A DNA stretch of 64,000 nt, taken from NCBI GenBank assembly GCA_963761425.1, contig CAVXGQ010000004.1:534134-598133 (forward strand), given 5' to 3'. Positions 34,170 through 51,785 of the stretch are shown here, one piece after another. Position 1 is the first letter of the stretch. Every line of letters begins with the position of its first letter. Made by a program: the position numbers and the translations under genes. Source of the stretch: an uncultured Acidimicrobiaceae bacterium. GTDB lineage: Bacteria > Actinomycetota > Acidimicrobiia > Acidimicrobiales > Bog-793. The notes under the pieces are model-generated. The model was not told where the DNA came from. It saw nothing but the letters and a program-made list of their open reading frames with translations, and made no database searches.

Positions 34170-35543
34170 CGGGCGACTGGGCCATCGAGTCGAGCACCGT
34201 GTCGATATCGGACTCGTTGGTGCGGGGGTTGACGATCGCCACCCGCGCCATGACCTCGCCGAGATGGGTCGTCGGCGTGACGAACGCCACTCCTTCCTCG
34301 CGCAGCTGGTTCGACCACCGGTTGTAGTGCTCGCGAGACCAGCCGTTCCGCATGAAGCACACCACGGTGAGCTCCGGCTCGCGCACCAGTGTCAGATAGG
34401 GGCGCTGATGAATCGCCTTGGCGGTGTAGCGGGCCACCTCGAGGGTCCGTTCGATGGCTTGCGAATAGGCCTCGGTCCCGTAGGTCGCCAGCGAGAACCA
34501 GAACGGCAGGCCGCGGGCCCGTCTGGTCAGGTGGATGGCGTAATCGGAGGGATTCCACTCGCCGGTCTGCGCCAGCGGCTCCAGGTAGCTGGCGTGCTGG
34601 GCATGGGTGGCGCGGGCGAGTTCCGGCTGGCGGTAGATGAGCGCGGCACAGTCGAACGGTGCGAAGAGCCACTTGTGCGGGTCGACGATGAACGAGTCGG
34701 CGAGTTCGATGCCTGTAAAGCGGGGCGCGCGCTCGGTGCTGCCAAGGCGGCGGCTCCGTAGGCGCCGTCGACGTGGAACCAGATCCCACGCTCGGCGGCG
34801 ACGGCGCCGACAGAACGAAGGTCGTCGATGACGCCGAGGTTCGTCGTTCCGGCCGACGCCACGACGGCGAAGACGTTCTGTGCGCCCTCCCTCTCTACGG
34901 CATCGAGGGCGCGGTCGAGGCTCGCGCCGCCGAGTCGCTGCTCAGCGTCGACCTCCACGACGACGAGGTCGACGTCCATCACGCCTGCCGCTTCTTCCAG
35001 CGACGAATGCACGTCGGGACTCACCGCGATCGCCCAGCGACGTCCCTTGGCGCGCGAGGCCGAAGTCCGGTCGCGCACCGCGTGGCGGGCGGTGACGAGC
35101 GCCGAGAGGTTGGCGATGGTCCCGCCCTGCACGAACGTCCCCCCCGCACCCGGCGGGAAATCCGCGAGGTCCGCGATCCACCGCAGCGCCTGATTCTCGG
35201 CGTAGACGGCACCCGCCGCCTCCAGCCAGTTGCTTCCGCACATCGAGGAGGCCCCGACGACCAGGTCGAACAGCATCGAGGCCTGGGTCGGCGCGCACGG
35301 GATGAAGGCGAGGAAACGAGGGTGGTCGACGGTTATGCAAGCCGGTGCCAACACATCGGCGAAGATTCTCAGCGCTTCTTTGCCGCCGATACCGTCGGCG
35401 GTGATGGTCGAACCGGCCTCGGCGGCCAGTTCGGCGAATGGACGAGTGTTGTCGAGCGGAAGCGGCTCGAGCTGCAGGCGGTTCTTCGCGTAGGCGAGCA
35501 CGTCTTCGGCGAGACGTTCGACGTCGCCGTTCCAACCGTGCAT
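34159..35543 (-). pseudogene. group II PLP-dependent decarboxylase interrupted by a 1-nt frameshift
   Basis: The N-terminal part is in ORF 34527..35543 (FVQGGTIANL..., WFHVDGAYGAAA). After ...APSARP the reading continues in another frame as RFTGIELADSFIVDPHKWLFAPFDCAAL... (PLP-lysine motif DPHKW) down to the stop at 34159. The shift maps to a G4 run at 34722..34725 (C-run on the coding strand). Confidence 0.7.
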
Positions 35544-35812
35544 GAGCGGAATATAGGGCCGATCGCCCAGAGCCGCACCTTCCTAGAGGAGATGCGAAAC
35601 CTTGGTCCGCGTCGTGACCCCGGCGCGCGTAACCTCAGCGGTACATGCCGTCGCGACCATTGCGTGGGAGAACCCGAGGACGAATCGGGGCCGACGAGTC
35701 GATGAGACGAGTTTTCCGGTGCCGACTCTTTTCTGCCGGGCCCCTGGGGGATCCAGTGCAGCTTGTCGCGGGCGAAGAGGCCAGCCTTGTGGGCCTCGGG
35801 GTTTGACGGGCC

Positions 35813-36586
35813 ATGCTTGTCGCTCTCGCCGTGGGCCTGGGCCTATTCGGCCTGATCGTGGGATCTTTCCTCAACGTCGTCATCTACCGAGTGCCCCGTG
35901 ACGAATCGATCGTCGCCCCGCGCTCGCACTGTCCCGCTTGTGGGATGACGATTCGCGCCTTCGACAACATTCCTGTGGTCTCGTACCTGGTGCTCCGGGG
36001 TCGATGCCGCAGCTGCAAAGCATCGATCTCGGTGCGGTACCCCATCGTCGAGCTGTTGACTGCGGGTCTTTTTGCGGGGACTGCGGCCCATTTTGGGTTC
36101 GCCTGGTCGCTGCCGGCCTATGTGGTCTTGGCCGCAGGCCTGCTGACGCTGGCGTCGATCGACCTCGCGGAGAACATTCTGCCGAAAAGGATCGTGTACT
36201 TCGTCACGGTCATCGTCGGCGTGCTCCTCGTTCTCGCCTCGGCAGAGACGGGAGACTGGCACCGACTCGTCATCGGCGTCTGCAGCGCGGCCGCTTGGTT
36301 CGGTTTGTTCTTCGCGATCAATGCTGTAGGTCCGCGATGGCTTGGTTTTGGCGACGTCCGCCTCGTCGGCGTGCTCGGACTCTCGTTGGGCTGGCTCGGT
36401 GTCGGCTATGTCCTTCTGGGTCTTTATTTTGCTGCACTCATCGGTGCGGCGGTTGGCATCGGGTTGATCGTGGCGAAGCGCGGCGGTCTCGCCACGCCGG
36501 TTCCCTTCGGGCCGTTCCTCGCGCTCGGCGCTGAAATTGCCATCTTCGCCGGCTCATCGTTGCTTCGCCCCTTCCACGGCCTTTGA
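35813..36586 (+). CDS. pilD: prepilin peptidase / N-methyltransferase (A24 family)
   Basis: GSFLNVVIYRVP, then the Cys pairs CPACG...CRSC of the N-terminal methyltransferase domain, then A24 peptidase helices with GFGDV and GPFLALGA. Confidence 0.9.
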   Translation: MLVALAVGLGLFGLIVGSFLNVVIYRVPRDESIVAPRSHCPACGMTIRAFDNIPVVSYLVLRGRCRSCKASISVRYPIVELLTAGLFAGTAAHFGFAWSLPAYVVLAAGLLTLASIDLAENILPKRIVYFVTVIVGVLLVLASAETGDWHRLVIGVCSAAAWFGLFFAINAVGPRWLGFGDVRLVGVLGLSLGWLGVGYVLLGLYFAALIGAAVGIGLIVAKRGGLATPVPFGPFLALGAEIAIFAGSSLLRPFHGL

Positions 36587-37398
36587 GGCTGGTCCACGGC
36601 GCGTCGCACGACCCGAGGTCCCAGGAGGGTCGGGGTCGCCGGCGGGATAGTCGGGACCGTGCGGTTCCGAATTGCCGGTTTCTTTCCCATTGGTGGTACC
36701 GGGAGAGATAACCACCGGGCTCGGGTCCAGTCGCAGATCTTCGCTTCACTGGTCCTGACAGCTCCGTCCCGCCGGGAGGGTCGGTTGTGACGATGACTGG
36801 CGCGAGGCGTTGACAATTTGAGTAAAAAGCGAAGGAGCGGGTCGGGCCACCATCGACCGATGATGGCAGTGAGTTCTGCCATCTCACCCAATCCATTCGA
36901 CGAGCCATGCGGAGTACACGCCTGAAACTCTCCCACGCGGAGGGCACAACCGCATTGCAAGCTGGACTGACGAAGCAATTTGAGGCGAGGGACCCTCCAA
37001 CGCAGCAGCCCTGGCCAAGGGCGAACCACCGACCTGGTGAGTTTGGGGACTCACGAGACGTGAGCTGGGCGATCCCGCCGATGCATTCAGACGATGGGGG
37101 GAGCTCGTATTGGCCACGGGTCGATCCCAACTCTTTGCCAGGGGCGTGACACATTCGGGCGTACGGAGAGGCGGGAGGGTGGGGTAGCATTGCGTGGTGT
37201 TTGGGTGGGAACGCTGGACCTGCGAGTCGGAATGACTGCCGCGCTCCACGAAGGCGAGCCCGATGCCGTCATGCGGCAACTCGCGGGCGTCGGTGGATTG
37301 GCGGACGTCAGCTACATATTCAGAGGCTTTAATGGGAGTCTTATCGTGGTGGCTCTCGGGTCGGGCGCTGGTCGTGCTTGCGGACTGGTGAAGTTGCC

Positions 37399-38838
37399 AT
37401 GAGGCGACGAATAATTCGAGCGTTGATCCCGGCCGAATGGCGCTCCCACACGGGCAATGCCCGCTCGAATGACGAGCATGGATTTACTCTGGTCGAACTG
37501 CTCATCGTCTGCGTGGTCACCCCGATCATCATCGGTGGGCTCGCCTATGCGCTCATCGAACTCCTTTCGCTCTCGCAAGGGACTCAAAACAGGATCTCGG
37601 ACGCGGCCGATGCTCAGACCGTTTCGAGCTACTACGAAAAAGACGTTCTGAGCGCTGAACAGCTCACCACGAGTTCCTCACCACTGGTTCCACTGAGTTC
37701 CCCCGGCGCCCAGTGCGGAACCGGGACGCAGTTGCTCGGACTGGAGTGGAACCTCAATCCGCAGACCGGCCAATACCAGACCGTCGTTTCATATGTGTTG
37801 GAAGGCACCACATTGGTGCGCCGGTATTGCACTTCCGGAGACGTGTCAAACCCGACGAGCAGTACCACCGTCTCCACTGATGTCTCCTCCAGCCAGCAGC
37901 CGCCGACAGTCTCTTTCGTGTCCGGTTATGCGGGCAGCCCTTCGACCGTGTGGTCGACGACGGTGGGCGTGACGGACGTCAAGTTCCCTATCACCGAGCC
38001 GGCAAGCCAGTTTTCGTACAGTCTGGACGCTGTCCCATCGGCGGGTTCGTCGTCGGGATCGCTCTCGGGAGTGGGTACCCCCTCGTCGCTGACAGGATGT
38101 GGCTTCGCGACGCCGGATACCGGTACGTACGCCTCGACGCTTTGTTTCGTGGATTTCAGCAACTTCAACTACTCCCTGTACAACCAAAATCCGAATCCGG
38201 CCAATTCTCCGTTGGCGACAGCGCCCACGAACTGCGAGCAGATGTCAGCAGATGTAGCGGACACGCCCTATGTGCTTTCGTTCTGTTTCAGCACGACGTC
38301 ATCTGGCACGGCGACACCAGGAATGCCCGGATACCCCGGCCCCGGTGCAGTCATCCCCTACATGATCCCCACCTATTTCAACCCCGGGGTGAGCGAGTCG
38401 TACATGGGAAATAACGGCGTCTACACGGGCATCCCAGGTGATCCCGCCCTCTACCAGAATTCCGAGGGTGCCACCTCTTACGTCTACTTTTCGAACATCA
38501 AGCTTCTGGACTCGAACGGCAACGCTGCGACGAACTGGGAGCTCGTGACCGGGGACGCGGAGTCCACTGACACCAGTGAGTCGATCACCTGGACATCCAA
38601 CAAACCGCTGTATCTGGTGCCCGACAGTCCGACGTCCCCCTACGGAAACGCCTGTGCTGGATCTTCATCCCCGGCCGGCTTGACGGGTCTCGGCACGGAG
38701 ACCGTCACCTGCGGGGCATCGGTAAGTTCGGACAAGACCGGCACCGTGATTCTCGAGGCCCTGGCTCCGACGACGCTCACCGTCAAGATGGTGGGGGAGG
38801 GTCTCGAGGCGATCTTCGTGGGTGTACTCCTGCCATGA
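37399..38838 (+). CDS. large pilin-like protein (prepilin N-terminus, GspJ/PilW-like core, unknown C-terminal domain)
   Basis: The leader ends ...NDEHG followed by FTLVELLIVCVVTPIIIGGLAYAL (Gly-1, Phe+1, Glu+5). Then QLLGLEWNL...VVSYVLEGTTLVRRYC resembles minor pseudopilins. About 280 further Ser/Thr/Gly/Pro-rich residues are unassigned. Confidence 0.75.
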   Translation: MRRRIIRALIPAEWRSHTGNARSNDEHGFTLVELLIVCVVTPIIIGGLAYALIELLSLSQGTQNRISDAADAQTVSSYYEKDVLSAEQLTTSSSPLVPLSSPGAQCGTGTQLLGLEWNLNPQTGQYQTVVSYVLEGTTLVRRYCTSGDVSNPTSSTTVSTDVSSSQQPPTVSFVSGYAGSPSTVWSTTVGVTDVKFPITEPASQFSYSLDAVPSAGSSSGSLSGVGTPSSLTGCGFATPDTGTYASTLCFVDFSNFNYSLYNQNPNPANSPLATAPTNCEQMSADVADTPYVLSFCFSTTSSGTATPGMPGYPGPGAVIPYMIPTYFNPGVSESYMGNNGVYTGIPGDPALYQNSEGATSYVYFSNIKLLDSNGNAATNWELVTGDAESTDTSESITWTSNKPLYLVPDSPTSPYGNACAGSSSPAGLTGLGTETVTCGASVSSDKTGTVILEALAPTTLTVKMVGEGLEAIFVGVLLP

Positions 38839-39008
38839 GGGCGGAGACGAAGTCCCCGACTGTGTTCGGTGTCCGTGGCTCGGCGGCGCTGGTGACGCGT
38901 GCCGCGAGGCGGCCGCTGGCGGCGCGTCGAACCGCTCCTGCGGGAGTTTTCCAGGCCGATAGTGATGCTCGGTCGGTCATCGAACCGTCGGGGTTCCTGA
39001 GCCGATGA
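38835..39008 (+). CDS. possible 57-aa coupling ORF (weak)
   Basis: Its ATG at 38835 overlaps the upstream stop (ATGA), and its stop at 39006-39008 overlaps the ATG of the giant gene (ATGA). Third-position G+C is moderately high. No motif. It is below the ORF-track size cutoff. Confidence 0.3.
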   Translation: MRAETKSPTVFGVRGSAALVTRAARRPLAARRTAPAGVFQADSDARSVIEPSGFLSR

Positions 39009-42000
39009 GACATCTTTGCCGTTGCCTGACTGCAAGAGGCTCGCTTCGAAGCGATGCTGAACAAACGCGACAGTTGGAGGTTGGCGACACGCTGATCGAG
39101 GTGCTCATTGCGCTCGTCGTGATTGGCGTGGCCGCGCTGTCCCTCCTCCTCGCCTTTTCCACGTCGCTCTGGGGCTCGTCCGACTACCGCAACGTCGCCA
39201 CCATCGACACCGTGCTGAGGACTGCCGCCGAAGAGACGACCAGCCTGCTCCAGCAGCAACCGGCCACCGCCTGGCAAGACTGCAGTGGCGCCTCCGACAT
39301 CAACAGCAGCAATCTTCTCCAACTCCCGAGCGGCTACACGGCGACAATCTCCGCCGAGTACTGGAACAGCACGCCTCCGCCACCGAGCTTCACCTCGACC
39401 TGCGTCCCCAACGCGACGCAACTCGACCTCATCACCGTGACCTATGCGGGGAAGACCTACCAGATCAGCGTCGTTGTCGACGATCCCCTGGCTCGCCCAG
39501 TGGCCCAAGCGGGTGCGTCTTACCAGCTCGTCTTCCTTTCCCAACCGAGCAGCGGTGTCAGCGCATCGGGTCTTTCGCCAACGCCGGTGGTCGCGGTCGA
39601 AGACGATAACGGCAACATCGTCACGACTGACCTGTCGACGGTCAGCCTCGCCATCACCCCGTCGACCAACCTGAGCGACGCGACGCTGTCGCCGAACTGC
39701 TCAGAGAACGAGTTCTACGGAGTGGTCACCTTCGCGAATTGCAGCATTGACAGGGCGGGAATCGGCTACACCCTCACCGCGAGCGATGGCAGTCTCGAGC
39801 CGGCTACGAGTGCTGCCTTCAACATCACACCCGGCCCAGCCAGCCAGCTCGCTTTCACGCCGACCCCGCCCGCCTCGGTCTTCGCCGGAGTCAAGTTCTC
39901 GGTCGTCGTGGCGGAGCAGGACGCCTACGGCAACACCGAGACGGGCGATTCCACCACGACGCTCACCCTTGCCGCTAGTGGCGGAGGATTTTCGTGCACG
40001 AGCCGGCTGACACAAGCAGTCACGGGCGGGGTTGCGACTTTCACCGGTTGTTCCTTCACGAGTGTGAGCACTACCGCTTACACCTTGACGGCCTCCTCCG
40101 GCACGCTGACCCCTGCGACAACTACCACCATGGTCGCGGCGAGCGCGGCCACCCAGCTCGTCTATCTCACCGGATCACAGACCTTCGTCGCGGGTACAGG
40201 GACTGCCGCTGGCTCCGGAGCGGTGATAGTTCAGCTGCAAGACGCCTATGGCAACCCGGTCAACGCTACCGCGGCCGTCGCACTCAGCTTCAGCGGGACT
40301 TCAGGAGTGACCTACATCCCGACGTTCGGGTCGACGACCGCTTGCACGTCCTCGACGTGCCGGATCCCGGCAGGTTCCTCGATCGGGACCTTCTATATGA
40401 CTGACAACGCGGCGAACGGTGCGTCAATCTCCGTCACTACGACCGCGAATGGCCTCAGCACCCCGGCGCAGTCGGAAACGGTCCTGCAGTCGAGCACCTT
40501 CAGCGGTTCGGTGGGGATCAGCTCTCAGAGTGGGGCACTGTCGCCCACCGGCACGGCGACGTACACGATCACCGTGCATAACACCGCCTCGAGCACCCGG
40601 TATATCGAGACGCTCATAAATGGCGTGCCCTCCAGTGCGACGAGCACGCTGGCGCCGACTTCGATCACGTGTGTGCAGATCGCGGGCGGCTCCAGCGCCA
40701 CATGGTCGTTGAGCGTGGTAACGAATGGGAAAACCCCGGCGGTTACCTCGAAGTTCTCGGTCGTCGCAGAAGGTTGGACCACCAGCGGCTGTTCTGGCAC
40801 GTTGGGCGAAGACACCGAGACTTCTGGGACGCTGACCATCACCCCCGGGTCCGAGCACGAGCTCGTGGTCACGACCCAGCCTGCTTCGTCGATCACCGCC
40901 GGCGGGACGGTTTCGCTAAGCGTGGCGGTCGAGGACCTATACGGCAACGTGTTGACCTCGGGCACCGGCTCGACCGACAGCATCCAGGTGGCTCTGTCCT
41001 CTGGCAGCTTCGTCGCTAGCACCACCACGGCGACCGCGTCCTCGGGCGTGGCCAGTTTCAGCGGCCTCGAGATCACCTCGACCGCCGGTTCGCCCTACAC
41101 GATCATTGTCAGTGACACGACTGACACCTCGGTCACCCCGGTGCCGACCAACTCCGTCACTGTCAACCCCGGTCCGGCGAGCCAGCTTGCCTTCACCCCG
41201 GCCACCCCCGGCCCCGGCATGGCGGGGAACCCCATCCCGAGCGTGGCGGTCTCGGCCGAGGACACCTACGGCAACGTGGCGACCTCGGCCAGCGGCTCGG
41301 TGGTCATGTCGATCGCCTCCGGCAGCCCGCAGTCCGGCTTCAACTCCGGGGCGACGACGGTCAGCCTGTCGAGCGGGGTGGCGAGCTTCACCAACCTGGT
41401 AGTCGACACCTCGGGGAGCTACACCTTTACCGCGAAGCCGAGCAGGATCAGCGGGGTGACCGCGGCGGTCAACTCCAACGCCTTCACCGTGAGCAGCTCG
41501 TCCACGGTGAACTCGTTGGCCATCACGACCATCCCGTCGGAGACCGCCGGGTCGGGCTTCACCGTCACGGCCACGGCGAAGGACGCCTTCGGCAACGTGG
41601 CGAACAACTCGGTGGACTCGGTGACCTTGAGCATCGTGTCGGGCAGCCCGCAGACGACGTTTTCCAACAACGGCTCGACCACCATGACGACGACGCTGTC
41701 CTCCGGTGTGGCCACCTTCCCGGCGGTGGCCTTCGACACCGCTGGCCCTAACTACACGCTGTCGGCTGAGGACACCTCGGCGAACGAAACGGCGCCCAAT
41801 TCCAACGCCTTCACCGTCCGCCCGGCGGCGGCCAGCCAGCTCGCCTTCACTACCCAGCCGGTGGGGGGCGTCACCGAGGGCACCAACTTCGGCACCTCGC
41901 CGGCCGTCTCGGTGGAGGACACCTACGGCAACGTGGTGACCACCGACACCGGCCACGTCACCCTGGCGACCTACTCGGGGCCGTCGGCGGCGGCCCTTAG

Positions 42001-45000
42001 CTGTTCGAACACCGGCTTCCCGACCATCTCGGCGGTGGCGGGGGTGGCCACCTTCACCAACTGCAAGATCACCGGGACGGCGGCGGCCGGGACCTACACC
42101 CTGAGCGCCAGCCGCACCGGCCTCACCCAGGCCGTCTCGGGCAACGTGGTGATCAACCCCGGTGCGGCCAGCCAGCTCGCCTTCACCCCGGCCACCCCCG
42201 GTCCGGGTGTGGCGGGGAGCGTGATCCCGAGCGTGGCGGTCTCGGCCGAGGACACCTACGGCAACGTGGCGACCTCGGCCAGCGGCTCGGTGGTCATGTC
42301 GATCGCCTCGACCGACCCGCAGACCAGCTTCACCTCCGGGACGACGACGGTCAGCCTGTCGAGCGGGGTGGCGAGCTTCACCAACCTGGTAGTCGACACC
42401 TCGGGGAGCTACACCTTTACCGCTACCCCGAGTGGGATCAGCGGGGTGACCGCGGCGGTCAACTCCAATGCCTTCACCGTCAGCGGATCGCCCACGGTGA
42501 ACTCGTTGGCCATCACGACCATCCCGTCGGAGACCGCCGGGTCGGGCTTCACCGTCACGGCCACGGCGAAGGACGCCTTCGGCAACGCGGCGCACAACTC
42601 GGTGGACTCGGTGACCTTGAGCATCGTGTCGGGCAGCCCGCAGACGACGTTTTCCAACAACGGCTCGACCACCATGACGACGACGCTGTCCTCCGGTGTG
42701 GCCACCTTCTCGGCGGTGGCCTTCGACACCGCCGGCTCCTACACGCTGTCGGCCAAGGACACCTCGGCGAGCGTGACGGCGCCCAACTCCAACGCCTTCA
42801 CCGTCCGCCCGGCGGTGGCGAGCCAGCTCGCCTTCACCACCCAGCCGGTGGGAGGCGTCACCGAGGGCACCAACTTCGGCACCTCGCCGGCCGTCTCGGT
42901 GGAGGACACCTACGGCAACGTGGTGACCACCGACACCGGCCACGTCACCCTGGCGAAGAGCACGGGGCCGGCGGCGGGGGCCCTTAGCTGTTCGAACACC
43001 GGCTTCCCGACCATCTCGGCGGTGGCGGGGGTGGCCACCTTCACCAACTGCCAGATCACCGGGACGGCGGCGGCCGGGACCTACACCCTGAGCGCCAGCC
43101 GCACTGGCCTCACCCAGGCCGTCTCGGGCAACGTGGTGATCAACCCCGGTGCGGCCAGCCAGCTCGCCTTCACCCCGGCCACCCCCGGTCCGGGTGTGGC
43201 GGGGAGCGTGATCCCGAGCGTGGCGGTCTCGGCCGAGGACACCTACGGCAACGTGGCGACCTCGGCCAGCGGCTCGGTGGTCATGTCGATCGCCTCCGGC
43301 AGCCCGCAGTCCGGCTTCAACTCCGGGGCGACGACGGTGGCCCTGGCTAGCGGGGTGGCGAGCTTCACCAACCTGGTAGTCGACACCTCGGGGAGCTACA
43401 CCTTTACCGCTACCCCGAGTGGGATCAGCGGGGTGACCGCGGCGGTCAACTCCAATGCCTTCACCGTCAGCGGATCGCCCACGGTGGCCTCGCTGGCCAT
43501 CACGACCATCCCGTCGGAGACCGCCGGGTCGGGCTTCACCGTCACGGCCACGGCGAAGGACGCCTTCGGCAACGCGGCGCACAACTCGGTGGACTCGGTG
43601 ACCTTGAGCATCGTGTCGGGCAGCCCGCAGACGACGTTTTCCAACAACGGCTCGACCACCATGACGACGACGCTGTCCTCCGGTGTGGCCACCTTCTCGG
43701 CGGTGGCCTTCGACACCGCCGGCTCCTACACGCTGTCGGCCAAGGACACCTCGGCGAGCGTGACGGCGCCCAACTCCAACGCCTTCACCGTCAGCCCGGC
43801 GGTGGCGAGCAAGCTCGCCTTCACCACCCAGCCGGTGGGAGGGGTCACCGAGGGCACCAACTTCGGCACCTCGCCGGCCGTCTCGGTGGAGGACACCTAC
43901 GGCAACGTGGTGACCACCGACACCGGCCACGTCACCCTGGCGAAGAGCACGGGGCCGGCGGCGGGGGCCCTTAGCTGTTCGAACACCGGCTTCCCGACCA
44001 TCTCGGCGGTGGCGGGGGTGGCCACCTTCACCAACTGCCAGATCACCGGGACGGCGGCGGCCGGGACCTACACCCTGAGCGCCAGCCGCACCGGCCTCAC
44101 CCAGGCCGTCTCGGGCAACGTGGTGATCAACCCCGGGGCGGCCAGCCAGCTCGCCTTCACCACCCAGCCGGTGGGAGGGGTCACCGAGGGCACCAACTTC
44201 GGCACCTCGCCGGCCGTCTCGGTGGAGGACACCTACGGCAACGTGGTGACCACCGACACCGGCCACGTCACCCTGGCGACCTACTCGGGGCCGTCGGCGG
44301 GGGCCCTTAGCTGTTCGAACACCGGCTTCCCGACCATCTCGGCGGTGGCGGGGGTGGCCACCTTCACCAACTGCCAGATCACCGGGACGGCGGCGGCCGG
44401 GACCTACACCCTGAGCGCCAGCCGCACCGGCCTCACCCAGGCCGTCTCGGGCAACGTGGTGATCAACCCCGGGGCGGCCAGCAAGCTCGCCTTCACCACC
44501 CAGCCGGTGGGAGGGGTCACCGAGGGCACCAACTTCGGCACCTCGCCGGCCGTCTCGGTGGAGGACACCTACGGCAACGTGGTGACCACCGACACCGGCC
44601 ACGTCACCCTGGCGAAGAGCACGGGGCCGGCGGCGGGGGCCCTTAGCTGTTCGAACACCGGCTTCCCGACCATCTCGGCGGTGGCGGGGGTGGCCACCTT
44701 CACCAACTGCCAGATCACCGGGACGGCGGCGGCCGGGACCTACACCCTGAGCGCCAGCCGCACCGGCCTCACCCAGGCCGTCTCGGGCAACGTGGTGATC
44801 AACGTCGGGGCGGCCAGCCAGCTCGCCTTCACCACCCAGCCGGTGGGAGGGGTCACCGAGGGCACCAACTTCGGCACCTCGCCGGCCGTCTCGGTGGAGG
44901 ACACCTACGGCAACGTGGTGACCACCGACACCGGCAACGTCACCCTGGCGTACTACTCGGGGCCGGCGGCGGGGGCCCTTAGCTGTTCGAACACCGGCTT

Positions 45001-46525
45001 CCCGACCATCTCGGCGGTGGCGGGGGTGGCCACCTTCACCAACTGCCAGATCACCGGGACGGCGGCGGCCGGGACCTACACCCTGAGCGCCAGCCGCACT
45101 GGCCTCACCCAGGCCGTCTCGGGCAACGTGGTGATCAACCCCGGGGCGGCCAGCAAGCTCGCCTTCACCACCCAGCCGGTGGGAGGGGTCACCGAGGGCA
45201 CCAACTTCGGCACCTCGCCGGCCGTCTCGGTGGAGGACACCTACGGCAACGTGGTGACCACCGACACCGGCCACGTCACCCTGGCGAAGAGCACGGGGCC
45301 GGCGGCGGGGGCCCTTAGCTGTTCGAACACCGGCTTCCCGACCATCTCGGCGGTGGCGGGGGTGGCCACCTTCACCAACTGCCAGATCACCGGGACGGCG
45401 GCGGCCGGGACCTACACCCTGAGCGCCAGCCGCACCGGCCTCACCCAGGCCGTCTCGGGCAACGTGGTGATCAACCCCGGGGCGGCCAGCCAGCTCGCCT
45501 TCACCACCCAGCCGGTGGGAGGGGTCACCGAGGGCACCAACTTCGGCACCTCGCCGGCCGTCTCGGTGGAGGACACCTACGGCAACGTGGTGACCACCGA
45601 CACCGGCCACGTCACCCTGGCGACCTACTCGGGGCCGTCGGCGGGGGCCCTTAGCTGTTCGAACACCGGCTTCCCGACCATCTCGGCGGTGGCGGGGGTG
45701 GCCACCTTCACCAACTGCCAGATCACCGGGACGGCGGCGGCCGGGACCTACACCCTGAGCGCCAGCCGCACCGGCCTCACCCAGGCCGTCTCGGGCAACG
45801 TGGTGATCAACCCCGGTGCGGCCAGCCAGCTCGCCTTCACCCAGTCGCCGGCGAACACGGGTGTTGGTGTGGCGTTCGCCACTCAACCCGCAGTGGCGGT
45901 GGAGGACAGCTACGGCAACGTGGTGACGACGAACACGTCAACGGTGACTCTCGCCATCACGGCGGGCACGCCCACTTCGGGTGGCCCAGGGACGCTGACG
46001 TGCACGGGCGGTCTGAGCAAGGGGGCGTCCGCTGGCATCGCCACCTTCGCGGGATGTTCGATCAGCACCGAGGGCGCTAATTACGAACTCCATGCCACGG
46101 ACGGGTCCCTGGTGGCTGCCAACAGCAGTGCCTTTAACGTGTTCAGCTCGGGCACGTACTCGGGGAGCAGCGGCACAAGCGATATTCCCAGTTCCGCCAC
46201 GTATTACGGGATCAACGCCTCTTCCGCCGGGTCGGGTACTTCCACGAACAACACCATCACGCCGGGTGTGGGCGAGACCCTGACCGGCCTGACGTTCACC
46301 ATCAATCGCACCAGCACGACGAGCCACACGGCCACGGTGGGGATCGTTACGAGCGGGGTCTGGGCTGCGACGGCGCTCACGTGCACTATTACCGGGGGTT
46401 CAGGCTTGACGAGCTGCACGATCACCGCCAACGTGAGCGTCTCGGCGACGCAGTCGATCAACATTCAAGCCGTAGGAAACGGGACCCGCACCGGAACGTG
46501 GACGACGACCTACACACAGCCGTAG
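39005..46525 (+). CDS. giant pilin-like surface protein: prepilin-type N-terminus + about 19 Ig-like domains + unique C-terminal domain (2,506 aa)
   Basis: N-terminus ...QLEVG DTLIEVLIALVVIGVAALSLLLAF (Gly-1, Glu+5, hydrophobic helix). An alternative TTG start at 39074 would give a 4-aa leader. There are 19 copies of the domain pattern [QKE]L[AV][FV]...P.V.V.D.[YFN]GN...G[VI]A[TS]F...Y.L[ST]A. No LPXTG motif. Confidence 0.85.
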   Translation: MRHLCRCLTARGSLRSDAEQTRQLEVGDTLIEVLIALVVIGVAALSLLLAFSTSLWGSSDYRNVATIDTVLRTAAEETTSLLQQQPATAWQDCSGASDINSSNLLQLPSGYTATISAEYWNSTPPPPSFTSTCVPNATQLDLITVTYAGKTYQISVVVDDPLARPVAQAGASYQLVFLSQPSSGVSASGLSPTPVVAVEDDNGNIVTTDLSTVSLAITPSTNLSDATLSPNCSENEFYGVVTFANCSIDRAGIGYTLTASDGSLEPATSAAFNITPGPASQLAFTPTPPASVFAGVKFSVVVAEQDAYGNTETGDSTTTLTLAASGGGFSCTSRLTQAVTGGVATFTGCSFTSVSTTAYTLTASSGTLTPATTTTMVAASAATQLVYLTGSQTFVAGTGTAAGSGAVIVQLQDAYGNPVNATAAVALSFSGTSGVTYIPTFGSTTACTSSTCRIPAGSSIGTFYMTDNAANGASISVTTTANGLSTPAQSETVLQSSTFSGSVGISSQSGALSPTGTATYTITVHNTASSTRYIETLINGVPSSATSTLAPTSITCVQIAGGSSATWSLSVVTNGKTPAVTSKFSVVAEGWTTSGCSGTLGEDTETSGTLTITPGSEHELVVTTQPASSITAGGTVSLSVAVEDLYGNVLTSGTGSTDSIQVALSSGSFVASTTTATASSGVASFSGLEITSTAGSPYTIIVSDTTDTSVTPVPTNSVTVNPGPASQLAFTPATPGPGMAGNPIPSVAVSAEDTYGNVATSASGSVVMSIASGSPQSGFNSGATTVSLSSGVASFTNLVVDTSGSYTFTAKPSRISGVTAAVNSNAFTVSSSSTVNSLAITTIPSETAGSGFTVTATAKDAFGNVANNSVDSVTLSIVSGSPQTTFSNNGSTTMTTTLSSGVATFPAVAFDTAGPNYTLSAEDTSANETAPNSNAFTVRPAAASQLAFTTQPVGGVTEGTNFGTSPAVSVEDTYGNVVTTDTGHVTLATYSGPSAAALSCSNTGFPTISAVAGVATFTNCKITGTAAAGTYTLSASRTGLTQAVSGNVVINPGAASQLAFTPATPGPGVAGSVIPSVAVSAEDTYGNVATSASGSVVMSIASTDPQTSFTSGTTTVSLSSGVASFTNLVVDTSGSYTFTATPSGISGVTAAVNSNAFTVSGSPTVNSLAITTIPSETAGSGFTVTATAKDAFGNAAHNSVDSVTLSIVSGSPQTTFSNNGSTTMTTTLSSGVATFSAVAFDTAGSYTLSAKDTSASVTAPNSNAFTVRPAVASQLAFTTQPVGGVTEGTNFGTSPAVSVEDTYGNVVTTDTGHVTLAKSTGPAAGALSCSNTGFPTISAVAGVATFTNCQITGTAAAGTYTLSASRTGLTQAVSGNVVINPGAASQLAFTPATPGPGVAGSVIPSVAVSAEDTYGNVATSASGSVVMSIASGSPQSGFNSGATTVALASGVASFTNLVVDTSGSYTFTATPSGISGVTAAVNSNAFTVSGSPTVASLAITTIPSETAGSGFTVTATAKDAFGNAAHNSVDSVTLSIVSGSPQTTFSNNGSTTMTTTLSSGVATFSAVAFDTAGSYTLSAKDTSASVTAPNSNAFTVSPAVASKLAFTTQPVGGVTEGTNFGTSPAVSVEDTYGNVVTTDTGHVTLAKSTGPAAGALSCSNTGFPTISAVAGVATFTNCQITGTAAAGTYTLSASRTGLTQAVSGNVVINPGAASQLAFTTQPVGGVTEGTNFGTSPAVSVEDTYGNVVTTDTGHVTLATYSGPSAGALSCSNTGFPTISAVAGVATFTNCQITGTAAAGTYTLSASRTGLTQAVSGNVVINPGAASKLAFTTQPVGGVTEGTNFGTSPAVSVEDTYGNVVTTDTGHVTLAKSTGPAAGALSCSNTGFPTISAVAGVATFTNCQITGTAAAGTYTLSASRTGLTQAVSGNVVINVGAASQLAFTTQPVGGVTEGTNFGTSPAVSVEDTYGNVVTTDTGNVTLAYYSGPAAGALSCSNTGFPTISAVAGVATFTNCQITGTAAAGTYTLSASRTGLTQAVSGNVVINPGAASKLAFTTQPVGGVTEGTNFGTSPAVSVEDTYGNVVTTDTGHVTLAKSTGPAAGALSCSNTGFPTISAVAGVATFTNCQITGTAAAGTYTLSASRTGLTQAVSGNVVINPGAASQLAFTTQPVGGVTEGTNFGTSPAVSVEDTYGNVVTTDTGHVTLATYSGPSAGALSCSNTGFPTISAVAGVATFTNCQITGTAAAGTYTLSASRTGLTQAVSGNVVINPGAASQLAFTQSPANTGVGVAFATQPAVAVEDSYGNVVTTNTSTVTLAITAGTPTSGGPGTLTCTGGLSKGASAGIATFAGCSISTEGANYELHATDGSLVAANSSAFNVFSSGTYSGSSGTSDIPSSATYYGINASSAGSGTSTNNTITPGVGETLTGLTFTINRTSTTSHTATVGIVTSGVWAATALTCTITGGSGLTSCTITANVSVSATQSINIQAVGNGTRTGTWTTTYTQP
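41182..45825 (+). repeat. in-frame near-identical tandem array: three ~990-nt three-domain units followed by five 336-nt single-domain units
   Basis: The landmark CCAGCT(C/T)GCCTTCACC recurs at 41182, 42172, 43159 and 44146 (periods 990, 987, 987). Within 44138-45818 the repeat start recurs every 336 nt (44138, 44474, 44810, 45146, 45482, 45818). Copies differ at only a few positions by eye. Confidence 0.9.
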
Positions 46526-46604: not shown

Positions 46605-48221
46605 TTGGTGACGGAGAGTCCAAGAACAGGGTTCCACATCGCTGGACTTCGCACGGGACGCGCAGTTCGGCCCGGACGCGGTGGAGAACACGACGAACCG
46701 GGTGCGATCCTGGTTCTGGCGCTTGTCTTCCTGCTGGTGGGAACCGTTGTTGTCGGTGCGCTGGTGAGCGCGCTGACGAATGACCTCAACAACTCGAACA
46801 CCTTCCAGTCGGTCCGGTCTCTCCAGTACGCGGCCCGGAGCGCGACCGATTTCGCGATCCAGAGCATCCGCTACACCCCGTTGCTGTCGACGTCCCAGAC
46901 ACTGAACGCCAGCCCGCCGAACTACTGCTGGGGGAGCGGTCCGGTCTCCACGTTCCAGACGATTGACGGCGTATCTGGGATGACGGTGTGGTGCAGCACG
47001 GTTTGGAACCCGACGAGTGCTGAGACCCGGGTCGTGACCTTCTCGACCTGCCTACTGCCCAGCAACCTGGCGAGCTACCAGGACGCTGCCGCTCAGTGCG
47101 AGCAGAATCCGTTCCTCCAGGCTGTGGTCACCTTTGATGACTACCCTCCGGGCATCAGCGCGCCGACGACCGCGGAGTGCGTGGTGTACTGCGGCGCGAG
47201 CATGGCCGTGAACAGCTGGGTGTGGTCGCCGGTGGTCCCGATCGTCACGGGGATCAGCCCCGGTTCTGGTCCGATCACCGGTAGCACGCCTAGCACGCCG
47301 TTGACCATCACCATCACGGGGACTGGGTTTGTGGCCGGAGCCGCCGTCAACTTTATCGAGGAATCTGGCGGTGTCCCGGCCAGCGACAACGTGGTGTTGT
47401 CGGTGCCTGCCGCGAACGTGACGGTGAACGGACCTGGTTCGATCGCGGTCCTCGCACCGGCGGCAACCGAGGGGTCCACTTACTACGTCACCGTGACGAC
47501 ATCGACGGGAACCAGCGCCTACAGCACCAACGACGTGTTCACGTATTCCCCTGTCGCCCCGACCGTCGCGGGGATCAGTCCTAATTCGGGATTGATCGGC
47601 GGGGGCAACGCGGTGACCATCACGGGAACCGGGTTCTTGAACGACGCGACCGTCAATTTCATCGAGGAGTCGGGCGGCTACCCGGTCTTGCCGACGGTGA
47701 GCGTTCCGGCCACCTACGTGTCGGTGACCAGTTCGACTTCTATCACCACAGTCTCGCCGCCCGTATCCGCCACGGGAACCTATTTCGTCACCGTCACGAC
47801 CTCGGATGGCACCTACACGCCGACCCCGGGAACGGTCTGCCCGTCTCCGCTGCTGGCGGGCACGCAGTGTGACACCTTCTCGTATGGGACGTTGACCCCG
47901 ACCATCTCCTCCATCACTCCGCTGTCTGGCTCGGTGCATGGCGGCACGGCGGTGACGGTCACTGGGGTCGGATTCGTGTCTGGGAACACCGTCACCTTTG
48001 TTAAGTTCTCCGGCCTGGATTCGAACGGCAACCCCATCACGACCGGTTATTCAGCCAATGCGTCTTCCGTAACGGTGAACGAATCAGGCGTCACGGGCAC
48101 TTCGACGATGACCGTCGTCTCGCCGGCGGTGAGCTCTTCGGGGACGTACTACATCGACGTCACGACGTCGCAGGGCACCAGCCTCTACAGCGGTGCCCCT
48201 GATGTCTTCACTTATTCGTAG
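46605..48221 (+). CDS. pilus-associated protein: PilX_N/TadG-like N-terminal hydrophobic segment + three IPT/TIG domains
   Basis: The N-terminus ...EHDEPGAILVLALVFLLVGTVVVGALVSAL resembles PilX_N/TadG-type anchors. It carries three repeats of the pattern P.(V/I).(G/S)I(S/T)P.SG...GG..VTITGTGF......V.F.........V.V.S...I....P......TYYV.V.T..G.S.....D.F(T/S)Y, which is IPT/TIG-like. Confidence 0.7.
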   Translation: MVTESPRTGFHIAGLRTGRAVRPGRGGEHDEPGAILVLALVFLLVGTVVVGALVSALTNDLNNSNTFQSVRSLQYAARSATDFAIQSIRYTPLLSTSQTLNASPPNYCWGSGPVSTFQTIDGVSGMTVWCSTVWNPTSAETRVVTFSTCLLPSNLASYQDAAAQCEQNPFLQAVVTFDDYPPGISAPTTAECVVYCGASMAVNSWVWSPVVPIVTGISPGSGPITGSTPSTPLTITITGTGFVAGAAVNFIEESGGVPASDNVVLSVPAANVTVNGPGSIAVLAPAATEGSTYYVTVTTSTGTSAYSTNDVFTYSPVAPTVAGISPNSGLIGGGNAVTITGTGFLNDATVNFIEESGGYPVLPTVSVPATYVSVTSSTSITTVSPPVSATGTYFVTVTTSDGTYTPTPGTVCPSPLLAGTQCDTFSYGTLTPTISSITPLSGSVHGGTAVTVTGVGFVSGNTVTFVKFSGLDSNGNPITTGYSANASSVTVNESGVTGTSTMTVVSPAVSSSGTYYIDVTTSQGTSLYSGAPDVFTYS

Positions 48222-48445: not shown

Positions 48446-49519
48446 CTACGCCGCCACCGCCCGGGCGAGGTCCTTGGGATACATGGATACCTCGAGCGCG
48501 GTGTCGTAGGAGATGGTGCCGGAATTGACCAGTTCGATGAGGCTCGTCTCCAGCGTCTGCATGCCCTCGGACCGGCTCGTGGTGATCACGTTGCGGAGCT
48601 GGAAGGTCTTGCCTTCTCGAATCAGCGCCCGGCAGGCGCTGTTGGCGAGTAGCACCTCGAAGGCGGCCACCCGTCCCCCGTCGACCCGGGGCATGAGGCG
48701 CTGGGCGATCACCGCGGCGAGGGACCCGGCCAGCTGGATACGGATGAGGTCCTTGCGATCGGCGGGGAACACGTCGATGATCCGGTCGATCGCCTGGGGC
48801 GCGTCGTAGGTGTGGAGCGTGGCGAACACCAGGTGGCCGGTCTCGGCCATCGTCAAGGCGATCTGGATGGACTCCAGATCGCGCATCTCCCCGACAAGCA
48901 GGACGTCGGGGTCTTCGCGCAGGCAGGAACGAAGTCCCCGCTCGAAGCTGGGGCAGTCGACTCCCACCTCCCGTTGATTGACGATGGACCGCTTGTGGTG
49001 ATGGAGATACTCGATCGGGTCCTCGATGGTGAGCACGTGGACCGGCCGGTTGTCGTTGATGTAGTCGATGACCGAGGCGAGGCTCGTCGACTTCCCCGAT
49101 CCGGTCGGCCCCGTCACCAGGATGAAACCACGAGGGAGGTTGGCGAGCGAACTGGCCACCGCCGGCAGCAGGAGCTCCTCGAAGCTCGGAATCCGCATCG
49201 GGATCATGCGGAGCTCGAGGGCGGGGCTCCCCCGTTGGTGGAAGGCGTTGCCGCGGATTCGGGCGACGTCGTTCCAGGAGAAGGCGAAGTCGTAGTCCTG
49301 GCGTTCCTCGAAGGACTCGTGCTGTTCGGGAAGCAGGAGCGAGCGGATGACCTGGCCGATCTGATCCGGCGTCAAGTTCGGCACCCCGTCGATCGGGACG
49401 AGTAAGCCGTCCAGACGGACCCGGGGGGCCGAACCCGCGGACAACAGGAGGTCGGAGCCTTTGCGGTCCCAGAGAAGCTGCAGCCAGGGATCGATCGGAG
49501 TGGTGTCGATATTTGCCAT
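48446..49519 (-). CDS. pilT: type IV pilus retraction ATPase
   Basis: 357 aa. Walker A GPTGSGKST, TIEDPIEYLH, REDPDVLLVGEMRD and GHLVFATLHT. The size and absence of a long N-terminal domain fit PilT rather than PilB. Confidence 0.92.
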   Translation of the reverse strand: MANIDTTPIDPWLQLLWDRKGSDLLLSAGSAPRVRLDGLLVPIDGVPNLTPDQIGQVIRSLLLPEQHESFEERQDYDFAFSWNDVARIRGNAFHQRGSPALELRMIPMRIPSFEELLLPAVASSLANLPRGFILVTGPTGSGKSTSLASVIDYINDNRPVHVLTIEDPIEYLHHHKRSIVNQREVGVDCPSFERGLRSCLREDPDVLLVGEMRDLESIQIALTMAETGHLVFATLHTYDAPQAIDRIIDVFPADRKDLIRIQLAGSLAAVIAQRLMPRVDGGRVAAFEVLLANSACRALIREGKTFQLRNVITTSRSEGMQTLETSLIELVNSGTISYDTALEVSMYPKDLARAVAA

Positions 49520-49550
49520 GTGTCTAGTAGAGCTTCATCGGAGACCCGCG

Positions 49551-49588
49551 TCAAAGACCGAAAGGGGCCCGGCGACATGCCGGACCCC
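49551..49588 (-). terminator. intrinsic terminator downstream of pilA
   Basis: The minus-strand RNA reads GGGGUCCGGC-AUGUC-GCCGGGCCCC (10-bp stem with one G-U pair) followed by UUUCGGUCUUU. It lies 35 nt after the pilA stop, before pilT. Confidence 0.55.
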
Positions 49589-49623
49589 TCGGTCCTCGAT
49601 CTGAGATCGGAGCAGGTACGCCG

Positions 49624-50142
49624 TTAGGTGACCGTGTTGCAGACGTCCGCGCCGGCAGTAACGCTGGTGTCGTAGTTGGTCCAAGTAGCCGGGGTTGCGG
49701 CCCCCGCGTCGGTATGGGCAGTGCTCACCCAGACCTGGCCCGGCGACACGCCAGCCACGTCCACGCCCGCCGTGACGCCGGCAGAGGTCTCGTAGCGGAC
49801 ACCGGTCTCGCCGCTAATCACGATACCGATGTAGTAGTGGGTGCTGTTACTCGGCCAGGAGCGCAAGGCCTTAGTGGTCCCGACGAGATCCGCGATCGAT
49901 CCCGGAAAGGCGCCGCCAGAGTTGGTGGCCTGGTAGGCCGCGATTCCGACCTCGACGGTCTTCGCGTCCGTGTTGCACGCCGACTTGGCGCTGGAGCTGG
50001 TGACGCCGCCGAGCGCGAAGACGACGACGGCGGCGAGGATGCCCATGATGATGATGACGATGAGGAGTTCGATCAGGGTGAAGCCTTCCTGACCGGACCG
50101 CTCGATGCCTGTTCTACGCATGGTGCGGTAACGACTGAACAT
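49624..50142 (-). CDS. pilA: type IV major pilin
   Basis: The leader ends ...GQEG followed by FTLIELLIVIIIMGILAAVVVFAL (canonical class III signal, Glu+5). 172 aa with two Cys residues. AAAGGAA lies 9 nt upstream of the ATG. Confidence 0.88.
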   Translation of the reverse strand: MFSRYRTMRRTGIERSGQEGFTLIELLIVIIIMGILAAVVVFALGGVTSSSAKSACNTDAKTVEVGIAAYQATNSGGAFPGSIADLVGTTKALRSWPSNSTHYYIGIVISGETGVRYETSAGVTAGVDVAGVSPGQVWVSTAHTDAGAATPATWTNYDTSVTAGADVCNTVT

Positions 50143-50182
50143 GTCGGCTAGTTCCTTTCTTCAGATCGATGGCCCTAACTCA

Positions 50183-50204
50183 CTACGAGGGCAGATTAGC
50201 CCTC
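50183..50204 (-). promoter_or_regulatory. 8-bp perfect hairpin in the pilA leader region
   Basis: ACGAGGGC-AGATTA-GCCCTCGT on the + strand, 40-60 nt upstream of the pilA ATG. Confidence 0.4.
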
Positions 50205-50293
50205 GTCATCAATGAGGTCGTCGATTTCGACCCATGCAGGCCAGAAAGAATAGTCAATATGTATCAGCTATGCCTATGGGAGAATGCCGCCTT

Positions 50294-50413
50294 GTCACCG
50301 TGCGTCACGATCCCGACACCACCAGTGGGAAAATATCGCCTCATCTCCAGAGGCCTTGGACGGTGGCTCCTGCGCCGGCGGGTCACCGTGCGACACGATC
50401 TCGACAGCACCAG
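50294..50413. repeat. two 32-nt imperfect direct repeats, 88 nt apart, upstream of pilA
   Basis: GTCACCGTGCGTCACGATCCCGACACCACCAG at 50294..50325 and GTCACCGTGCGACACGATCTCGACAGCACCAG at 50382..50413. 29 of 32 positions are identical. Both carry an internal GTCAC/G(T/A)CAC submotif with 10-nt spacing. Confidence 0.6.
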
Positions 50414-50564
50414 AGCCCCGCAAGTGGCCCGGATTGGCTGCGTCGATTGTCGGAAATTGTGCGTCCCGATCAAGTCACCATCACCGGCATTGATATGGTC
50501 TCGGACGGCGGTTAGAAGCGCCGACGGGCGGGGCGTATTGTTTCCCCGGACGAGATTCCTCGGG

Positions 50565-51773
50565 TTAGGTGATCTTTACCTGGCGGTAGATGCCGTACAT
50601 GGCGGAGATGAGCGCGATCGCGACGAAACCGACGATGAGCCCCATGACGATGATGATGGCGGGCTCGAAGTAACCGGTGAACCGCTTGAGCTTGTAGTCG
50701 AGCTCCCTCGCGTAGTACTTGGCCGCGGTGTCCAGCTGCTCTTCGAGGGTCCCGGTCTCCTCGCCGACGCGCATCATCTGGCGAGCCGCGCTCGGGAACA
50801 GGTCGCTCGTCGCGACGGGATCGGCGAGGCCACGGCCTTCGAGCATCTCGTCCCGGATGCCGTCGATTCCCTTCTTGTAGACGTCATTCGACACCGAGTC
50901 GGAGGTCACGATCAGCGCCTCGGGGAGCGAGACACCGGCCTGGATCATCGACGAGAGGATCCGACAGATCCGCTCGATCATGACGTGCTGGACGAGGTCC
51001 CCGGCGATGGGGAGGCGGAGGACCCATGAATCGATCACCGCCCGTCCTTTTTTGGAGCGCCAGGCGATCATGAAGACGATGACCAGGAAGACGATCACCC
51101 CGAGGATGATGTCCCACCGGGCCTCGAAGAAGTTGGTGAACCGGATCAGGAGCATCGTGGGGAGGGGGAGCTTGGCGCCGAGCGACGCGAAGAAGGTCTT
51201 GAACCTCGGCATGACGAACACCCCGAGCACGACGACCACGACGACCGACATGCAGAGCACGATCCCCGGATAGATCATCGCCCCGGTGACCTTGCTGCGC
51301 GCGTCGGCGTCCCGTTCCATGTAGTCGGAGAGCTGGCCGAGAACGACGTCCAGGTTTCCTGCCAGCTCGGCCGCGCTGAGCATCCCGATGTAGTAGGGAG
51401 GAAAGGCCTCGGGGTGGGCCTCGGCGGCGAGCGAGAGGGTGTCGCCGGCCGCGATGGCCTCGATCATCGAACGCAGCGCCTTTTTGAACAGCTTGTCGGT
51501 CGTCTCTCCCTCGATGATCTCCAGGGCGTCGAGGATCGGGATTCCCGCCTTCACGAAAACTCCGAGCTGGCGCGAGAAGTGCATGACCACCTGACGCGGG
51601 ACCTTTCTCTTGGTCACCTCGTACTGGAGGATGCTCGTCTTCTCTTCAATGGAGAGCGGCTCGAGCTCCCGGCTCAGCATCAACAGGTGGGCGGCACCCG
51701 CGTTGGGGGACGCGATCACCCCCGAGACTTCCCTGCCGCTCTTGTCGATTGCGGTGTAGCTGAATCGGGCCAT
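50565..51773 (-). CDS. pilC: type IV pilus platform protein (GspF/PilC family)
   Basis: 402 aa with two T2SSF repeats (FSRQLGVFVKAGIPILDAL ... ICRILSSMIQAGVSLPEAL) and three TM segments. AGGA lies upstream of the ATG, 12 nt after the pilB stop. Confidence 0.92.
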   Translation of the reverse strand: MARFSYTAIDKSGREVSGVIASPNAGAAHLLMLSRELEPLSIEEKTSILQYEVTKRKVPRQVVMHFSRQLGVFVKAGIPILDALEIIEGETTDKLFKKALRSMIEAIAAGDTLSLAAEAHPEAFPPYYIGMLSAAELAGNLDVVLGQLSDYMERDADARSKVTGAMIYPGIVLCMSVVVVVVLGVFVMPRFKTFFASLGAKLPLPTMLLIRFTNFFEARWDIILGVIVFLVIVFMIAWRSKKGRAVIDSWVLRLPIAGDLVQHVMIERICRILSSMIQAGVSLPEALIVTSDSVSNDVYKKGIDGIRDEMLEGRGLADPVATSDLFPSAARQMMRVGEETGTLEEQLDTAAKYYARELDYKLKRFTGYFEPAIIIVMGLIVGFVAIALISAMYGIYRQVKIT

Positions 51774-51785
51774 GGACGATCCTGT

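Follow-up and report, generated by a model that had tools for sequence, protein, structure and literature searches.

A mosaic tandem array of Ig-like domains within a giant pilin-like gene of an uncultured Acidimicrobiaceae bacterium

The DNA analysed here, a window of 64,000 nucleotides (nt) in which all coordinates below are positions unless a locus of another genome is named, comes from an uncultured Acidimicrobiaceae bacterium, a member of a soil lineage known only from metagenomes, whose assembly comprises 2.28 Mb in 6 contigs. On the forward strand, the list of open reading frames (ORFs) and the translation place a giant gene at 39005–46525, a single uninterrupted frame of 2,506 amino acids (aa) that begins with a prepilin-type N-terminus, continues with about 20 immunoglobulin (Ig)-like modules and encloses the whole of a tandem array of about 4.6 kb (41165–45808). 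This array holds 14 domains: an A-B-C trio present three times and then five extra C units. Upstream of it, the protein opens with a pilin module (39005–39505, +) that consists of a 27-aa leader ending at Gly27, the segment DTLIEVLIALVVIGVAAL with Glu at +5, and a globular part of about 110 aa with two conserved Cys. Downstream, the array is closed by the D domain (45809–46138, +), a diverged C-like Ig domain with 50% aa identity to C, and the gene ends with a Ser/Thr/Gly-rich module of about 130 aa with two Cys (46139–46525, +), presumed to be the distal tip, for which no family match was found. A profile hidden Markov model (HMM) built from the C units recognised 18 related domains along the giant protein; residues 377–613 are domain-sized yet unmatched by it.

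When the phase of the units is set at the domain boundary N/R/S-P-G/A-A-A-S-Q/K-L, the first trio spans 41165–42154 (ABC1, 990 nt, with A at 41165–41494, B at 41495–41818 and C1 at 41819–42154), the second 42155–43141 (ABC2, 987 nt) and the third 43142–44128 (ABC3, 987 nt), and the five 336-nt units C4 to C8 fill 44129–45808 with starts at 44129, 44465, 44801, 45137 and 45473, all on the forward strand. An earlier note on this DNA had described these units, at coordinates 17 nt higher, as a trio with periods of 990, 987 and 987 nt followed by five C domains at an exact period of 336 nt, and this is confirmed both by Tandem Repeats Finder (TRF), which reported the C run at 43795–45841 (336-nt period, 6.1 copies, 97% matches, 0% indels), and by a gap-free repeat finder, in which the eight C copies are spaced by 987, 987 and then five times 336 nt and the three copies of the A region by 990 and 987 nt. 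Every unit has a length that is a multiple of three and remains in frame. The near-identity of the copies claimed in the note also holds, with 94–100% nt identity among units; ABC2 and ABC3 share 97.9% and ABC1 and ABC2 94.2%, ABC1 has one codon more than the other trios (columns 585–587), and pairwise differences among C copies range from 0 to 16 of 336 nt. No further copy of the A, B or C units was found outside the giant gene in the 2.28-Mb assembly. On the opposite strand, an open frame of 1,649 codons runs across the array (40937–45886, −); nothing supports a gene there, and we set this 1,649-aa antisense ORF aside as a by-product expected from repeats rich in G+C at third codon positions (GC3), without independent support.

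The eight C copies differ at 23 nt columns. Twelve of them lie within the first 51 nt, where the context varies because the upstream neighbour of a C unit is either B or another C, and 8 of the 11 that remain beyond nt 51 fall within one 24-nt window (nt 150–172), as tight a clustering as none of 100,000 random placements of the variable sites produced (p<1e-5). The alignment thus bears out the view that the differences are patch-wise and not random. In C1 the patch lies at 41969–41991 (+), which corresponds to codons 51–58, and in the other C units it lies at the unit start plus 150. Between its two main loop alleles, X (TYSGPSAG) and Y (KSTGPAAG), non-synonymous changes number 6.5 and synonymous ones 0.5, with no further differences except at codon 7; overall, the differences that survive among the C units are almost all amino-acid-changing and sit in one predicted hairpin loop. 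All the peptide variants quoted in the earlier note were found, namely the loop forms TLATYSGPSAG, TLAKSTGPAAG and TLAYYSGPAAG and the pairs ASQL/ASKL and NPG/NVG, to which C1 adds TYSGPSAA. ASKL travels with the KST patch, so that linkage is coherent across copies, and C6 combines a third, hybrid loop, YYSGPAAG (X′), with four private changes.

From C1 to C8 the alleles run X Y Y X Y X′ Y X, which is a strict alternation from C3 to C8. C4 and C8 agree at 336 of 336 nt, as do C5 and C7; self-identity of the array is 97.3% at a shift of 336, 98.6% at a shift of 672 and 99.3% at a shift of 1344, and the longest exact repeat (657 nt, shift 1344) matches C3C4 to C7C8. C3 to C8 are three 672-nt Y-X dimers, that is, a higher-order repeat. 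The alleles had been described as interspersed; they are mixed along the array, but in the C3–C8 segment they alternate strictly, and duplication of a two-unit 672-nt block explains their interspersion more simply than conversion does.

The rest of the mosaic supports recombination or gene conversion between copies. In the four-gamete test, 50 pairs among the 15 informative sites of the eight C copies proved incompatible, which sets the minimum number of recombination events (Rm) at 4 or more. C4 and C8 carry the seven-site loop patch of C1 unchanged, with flanks at nt 50 and nt 172 that are of the C2/C3 type, and this bounds the transferred tract in C4/C8 to 15–121 nt. The A domains tell of similar exchanges. 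At 47 of the 68 sites that vary in the alignment of the three trios, it is unit 1 that differs and unit 3 equals unit 2; in columns 156–187, nine consecutive variable sites have A3 equal to A1 and A2 as the odd one, a run that none of 200,000 shuffles matched (p<5e-6). The patch lies at 42310–42341 in A2 and at 43297–43328 in A3, where it is identical to that of A1, and the earlier perception of the third A copy as a chimera is therefore correct. These sites were polarised with the A domain of G006, the nearest species (80% identical at the protein level in its unique part), a domain that could in turn represent several collapsed copies. Sites 1–6 are derived and private to A2, within 14 nt, sites 7–9 have a derived state common to A1 and A3, and the next three have a derived state common to A1 and A2, with A3 ancestral. 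Since three mutually incompatible groupings of A1, A2 and A3 occur within about 50 nt, no single tree fits, and the four-gamete incompatibilities together with the outgroup polarisation mean that short conversion tracts are needed besides block duplication. Unequal crossing-over or gene conversion, to which the earlier note had attributed the whole mosaic, is in this way upheld by Rm, by the A patches and by the mosaics of congeneric species described below, and gives way to block duplication for the X/Y alternation.

What is repeated in the array? The repeats reach no Pfam or NCBIfam model above threshold. With an alignment of 46 related domains as input, AlphaFold2 predicted the C unit with confidence to be all beta (predicted local distance difference test, pLDDT, 91.1; predicted template modelling score, pTM, 0.84), and ABC2 modelled from its single sequence gave a pLDDT of only 40. 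Foldseek matched the C-unit model to the C-terminal Ig-like domain of GH2 glycosidases (template modelling score, TM, 0.66–0.75, E ~3e-4) and more weakly to intimin D00-D0 and 1f00. Judged by this predicted structure, the repeat unit is an Ig-like beta-sandwich domain. Compared with Pfam, 9 of the 46 aligned domains matched Invasin_D3 and 4 matched Big_1 (best E 0.0014–0.0046), with matches to Glyco_hydro2_C5 too, all of them sub-threshold; a search with the whole giant protein gave no match to Big_1 or Invasin_D3 above the Pfam gathering threshold, and the domain profile and the pilin-module profile yielded only noise against PDB sequences. The C-unit HMM also detects many such domains in giant proteins from other phyla. 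In the AlphaFold model, the variable patch of C occupies the end of strand 46–53 and the turn before strand 58–61. Among the C-type domains of other species and metagenomic relatives, the homologous loop is the most variable segment and includes a 6-residue indel, and a KST-type loop is present in a distant metagenomic relative. The patch of the A domain would lie at the equivalent spot, after the ...V-x-I/L-A strand.

The N-terminus of the giant protein, ...RQLEVG followed by DTLIEVLIALVVIGVAALSLLLAF, has the features of a class III signal peptide: its leader closes with Gly, +5 is Glu and a hydrophobic helix comes next. Six orthologues share this helix and the G, T, L and E of the motif without exception, the GDTLIE motif is conserved in congeners, and the pilin module has 60 invariant columns among six orthologues. 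In all 6, matches to the prepilin model TIGR02532 stay under its cut-off, and the best named similarities, to the minor pilins GspI, PilV and ComGE, lie far below theirs. The surroundings of the gene fit this signal. A prepilin peptidase of the PilD type is encoded at 35813–36586 (+; Pfam A24_N_bact 1.6e-37, Peptidase_A24 1.9e-9), and the gene immediately upstream encodes a pilin-like protein of 486 aa with a GFTLVE motif (37378–38838, +; N_methyl match, synteny in 6 loci), the succession of a GFTLIE gene and the GDTLIE giant gene being kept in congeners. Downstream follow a protein with three IPT/TIG domains (46605–48221, +; Pfam TIG 8.9e-18) and, on the opposite strand, the type IV pilus machinery (48446–53684, −), with a PilT-like ATPase, a pilin, a PilC platform protein and a PilB ATPase (Pfam T2SSE, N_methyl, T2SSF and T2SSE+MshEN); the small pilin of this block lies at 49624–50142 (−; Pfam N_methyl). 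The prepilin signal and the locus thus suggest that the giant protein is located at the cell surface. On the far side of the peptidase gene, a decarboxylase dependent on pyridoxal phosphate (34100–35550, −) shifts frame once near a G/C run (~34722), and the adjoining arginase-family gene is split; these disruptions may be either pseudogenes or long-read indel errors, and they bear on the quality of the assembly.

An orthologue of the giant gene was present in 8 of 8 other species of the genus, and lengths, which differ widely among the complete genes, lie between ~900 and ~2,460 aa. In G004 and G007 the protein has ~900 aa and no array was reported. In G002 (~1,410 aa) a 411-nt unit is repeated 7.0 times with 97% matches, in G001 (~1,490 aa) a 348-nt unit is repeated 6.1 times (93%) as a clean three-unit higher-order repeat, and in G003 (~2,400 aa) a 348-nt unit is repeated 9.1 times (90%) beside an older 4-copy array, against 2,506 aa with three trios and five C units in this genome. 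The length variation that the earlier note had predicted between cells or strains is thus supported only between species, where it goes together with different arrays. Its expression 'antigenic' variation is not supported, as the organism is environmental and gives no sign of an immune host; surface-loop variation is the neutral term. In a tree of the domains, the eight C units of this genome form one clade (100/99), separate from the units of G001 and G003, and the three A units group together. Because the C and A units of the window cluster by genome, the arrays have either expanded separately in each lineage or had their copies kept alike by concerted evolution.

The three arrays of these congeners all fail the four-gamete test, with Rm values of 2, 2 and 14. 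In the G002 orthologue (L016, 6071–10426, −), the array unit is an unrelated 137-aa domain, and its two-allele patches (ANVANG/STVSAS and TTTAGAA/ATTGAQ) are reassorted among array copies, as here. The pilin-like gene upstream of it (L016, 10563–14036) contains an array of its own, with six copies of 330 nt. In G003 (L013, 7737–15113, −), A-type and C-type domains are mixed in C-A-C blocks with identical copies and then give way to a C-only run, which indicates that the composite-then-single architecture arose more than once. In G006 the gene is divided over two contigs (L002 and L028, on C160 and C119) of a short-read-like assembly, with the break at the end of the A domain; the contigs overlap by ~40 residues and the second carries the D and C-terminal modules. 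As they join at the end of the A domain, any internal repeats have been lost from that assembly, an outcome typical of repeats in assemblies of this type. G006 is also the only congener that keeps the C-terminal module of about 130 aa. The proteins of the other congeners finish with a different Ig-like domain, so that the distal tip itself appears to be exchangeable. As regards closer relatives, a search with the N-terminus found no cluster above 64% identity, the collection contained no protein with ≥90% identity, and the nearest C-like unit in a metagenome scan was 79% identical; scanning the genome collection yielded distant relatives alone, which place the organism in the Acidimicrobiaceae.

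Another feature of the array is its base composition. GC3 is 0.93–0.98 in the array (41165–45808) versus 0.77–0.84 in the unique parts of the gene (39005–41164 and 45809–46525), and the first two codon positions (GC12) keep a level G+C of 0.55–0.60 along the gene. Across the genome's long ORFs, the GC3 median is 0.835 and 95% of values do not exceed 0.91. In loci that hold both recently duplicated (≥85% identical) and unique (<70%) domains, the duplicated ones were richer in GC3 in 7 of 9 cases, including 5 of 5 Acidimicrobiaceae loci. This excess is suggestive of GC-biased gene conversion, of which it may be a trace.

What could such an array be for? We consider it probable, at roughly 0.72, that it serves as the stalk of a fibrillar protein on the cell surface, anchored via a type IV prepilin N-terminus, in other words a Periscope-like stalk on a modular minor pilin, and the fibre is probably assembled through that N-terminus. 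The 14 near-identical Ig-like domains, joined by short Pro/Gly linkers, would form a rod that, at an estimated ~4 nm per domain, would give the whole protein a length of ~70–80 nm and keep the C-terminal module away from the cell or from the pilus tip. According to this model, the A-B-C trio would have duplicated twice, ABC1 splitting first (5.8% divergence) and ABC2 and ABC3 afterwards (2.1%), and the C unit next to ABC3 would then have been amplified, chiefly as the two-unit 672-nt Y-X block. Unequal recombination of the RecA type, or replication slippage, between near-identical units would alter copy number, short non-reciprocal exchanges (tens to ~120–200 nt) would carry loop patches between copies, and the remainder of each unit would be held homogeneous.

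The array is an instance of a known process, by which the repeats of surface proteins grow, shrink and exchange short patches through recombination. For the Periscope Proteins (SasG, Rib, Sgo_0707 and CdrA), a change of repeat number by intragenic recombination has been proposed (Whelan et al. 2021, PMC8201768). The giant protein shares with them tandem folded domains, mostly Ig-like (E-set) in their case, that are encoded by highly identical DNA, short Pro-rich linkers and large length differences between relatives, and the long, near-identical whole-domain repeats that characterise them are found here as 14 domains with 94–100% nt identity. It differs from them in that its repeat is composite (the ABC trio, then C only), in that its bearer is environmental and not host-associated, and in that an N-terminal prepilin-type signal takes the place of the LPXTG wall anchor or outer-membrane partner used there; since the anchor is N-terminal, the distal functional end would here be the C-terminal one. 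The second relevant group is that of modular type IV pilins, such as PilB and PilC of Streptococcus sanguinis, of which a census is available (Raynaud et al. 2021, PMC8179133) and whose grafted modules are predicted to be tip-exposed and adhesive (PMC8179133). As in those proteins, a class III signal peptide and a pilin module are followed by grafted non-pilin modules, and the locus also encodes the prepilin peptidase and the assembly ATPase and platform with which modular pilins are encoded. However, the census maximum is 860 aa with 12 short repeats (PMC8179133), compared with 2,506 aa and about 20 modules here, the grafted part is here a recently amplified and recombining array, and the pilin motif, which has Asp at +1, scores below threshold. 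The Big_1 and Invasin_D3 rods of invasin and intimin have in common with the repeats an Ig-like beta-sandwich and a ...V.V.D..GN.V... motif, but the repeats reach no Pfam threshold and have domains with two conserved Cys, and the predicted prepilin route contrasts with the inverse autotransporter of those proteins. Finally, the pilE/pilS system of Neisseria resembles the array in its short, non-reciprocal patch transfers into the gene of a pilus protein; unlike in Neisseria, donor and recipient are units of one ORF, there are no silent cassettes and there is no sign of high-frequency switching.

Several points weigh against the reading as a pilin-anchored stalk. The TIGR02532 model scores 15.4 bits on the giant protein, below its cut-off of 16.3, and +1 is Asp where Phe or Met is usual; as the score is near the threshold but under it, we keep the label 'pilin-like' instead of 'pilin'. 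The protein would be a very large modular minor-pilin-like protein, but its processing and its incorporation into a pilus are features that we infer from sequence, and the selective agent and the ongoing variation within populations are likewise suppositions of this reading. Length variation is known between species only, since no same-species genome was found, whereas change at the strain level is the hallmark of Periscope Proteins. The non-synonymous excess between X and Y (pN/pS) amounts to only 7 differences, and the GC3 excess could stem from founder domains that were already GC3-rich, the copies not being independent data points. In addition, copy number and allele order rest on one metagenome-assembled consensus, and the exact identity of C4 with C8 and of C5 with C7 could partly come from consensus polishing. 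It is plausible, as the earlier note warned, that the array is at risk of mis-assembly, and one may go further and suppose that the array is real but that its copy number, its exact identities and the placement of its patches are artefacts of assembly or polishing, or the result of strain mixing. The uncultured origin of an assembly that has 6 contigs and is 91.5% complete, exact repeats of up to 657 nt that are difficult to polish, the break of the G006 assembly at the same place and the nearby decarboxylase gene, whose single change of frame in a G/C run is like long-read consensus errors, all point that way. But the 7.5-kb frame is intact, with all units multiples of three and 0% indels, the assembly has no alternative haplotigs, each patch allele occurs in several copies with coherent linkage (ASKL with the KST patch), a KST-type loop exists in a related metagenomic protein, and mosaic arrays occur in three independently assembled congeners, for which reasons we think an artefact unlikely.

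Other explanations accept the array as it stands and concern its origin. Successive duplication of 987-nt trios and 672-nt dimers with later point mutation, and without any gene conversion, would fit the strict Y-X alternation and the exact C3C4=C7C8 and C5=C7 matches, and it has a parallel in the clean three-unit higher-order repeat of G001. Nevertheless, the four-gamete incompatibilities persist (Rm at least 4), the C1 seven-site loop patch stands unchanged in C4 and C8 in a background that is unlike C1 on both sides, and A3 has three derived sites in common with A1 and lacks three that A1 and A2 share, all within 50 nt; one short transfer is a far more likely cause than two independent origins of identical multi-nucleotide changes, and duplication as the sole process seems to us quite improbable. 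Clustered, multi-nucleotide and near-purely non-synonymous changes in an exposed loop of a pilus-associated protein might also recall programmed diversification, either by a diversity-generating retroelement (DGR) or, as in the pilE/pilS system of Neisseria, with silent cassettes as the source. The number of discrete alleles is only two to three, though, with no spectrum of variants, and the changes span more than one base type; in the assembly, from which ~8% of the genome is missing, there is no reverse transcriptase (RVT_1) and the A, B and C units have no extra copies outside the gene, which speaks against the DGR and silent-cassette mechanisms, and we give programmed diversification almost no credence.

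The pilin-anchored stalk may have a further function, although we put this forward as a speculation that we think improbable: the fibre might serve for combinatorial loop display, with a few hairpin-loop alleles, at the equivalent loop of A and C, held apart by selection and frequent GC-biased conversion homogenising the rest of each unit, to a GC3 of ~0.97. The idea draws on G002, where similar alleles occur in the unrelated 137-aa unit. Phage or grazer pressure, or ligand range, are equally open as the selection acting on loop alleles. If this were true, it would reveal a new anchoring mode for proteins of the Periscope type and, in addition, offer a clear example from bacteria of biased gene conversion that can be seen inside one gene. 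Even apart from it, the analysis extends the Periscope idea to a soil actinobacterial lineage, to an Ig-like family without a curated model and to a prepilin-type anchor, and it suggests that very long, fast-evolving fibres are possible at type IV pilus tips. In our opinion, the main interest of the system lies in this pilin anchor, in the scale of the protein, in the replicated turnover between species and in the GC3 signature. The contrast in GC3 within the gene (~0.97 versus ~0.80), which is repeated across species, constitutes a natural test bed for GC-biased conversion in bacteria. In practice, the length of this gene in any assembly should be flagged for long-read confirmation.

In G001, 3′ of the pilus genes (L015, 11738–12924), a separate tandem array with periods of 162 and 486 nt lies in another gene and repeats the Cys-rich motif VSCSSDGNCAAGGYY...

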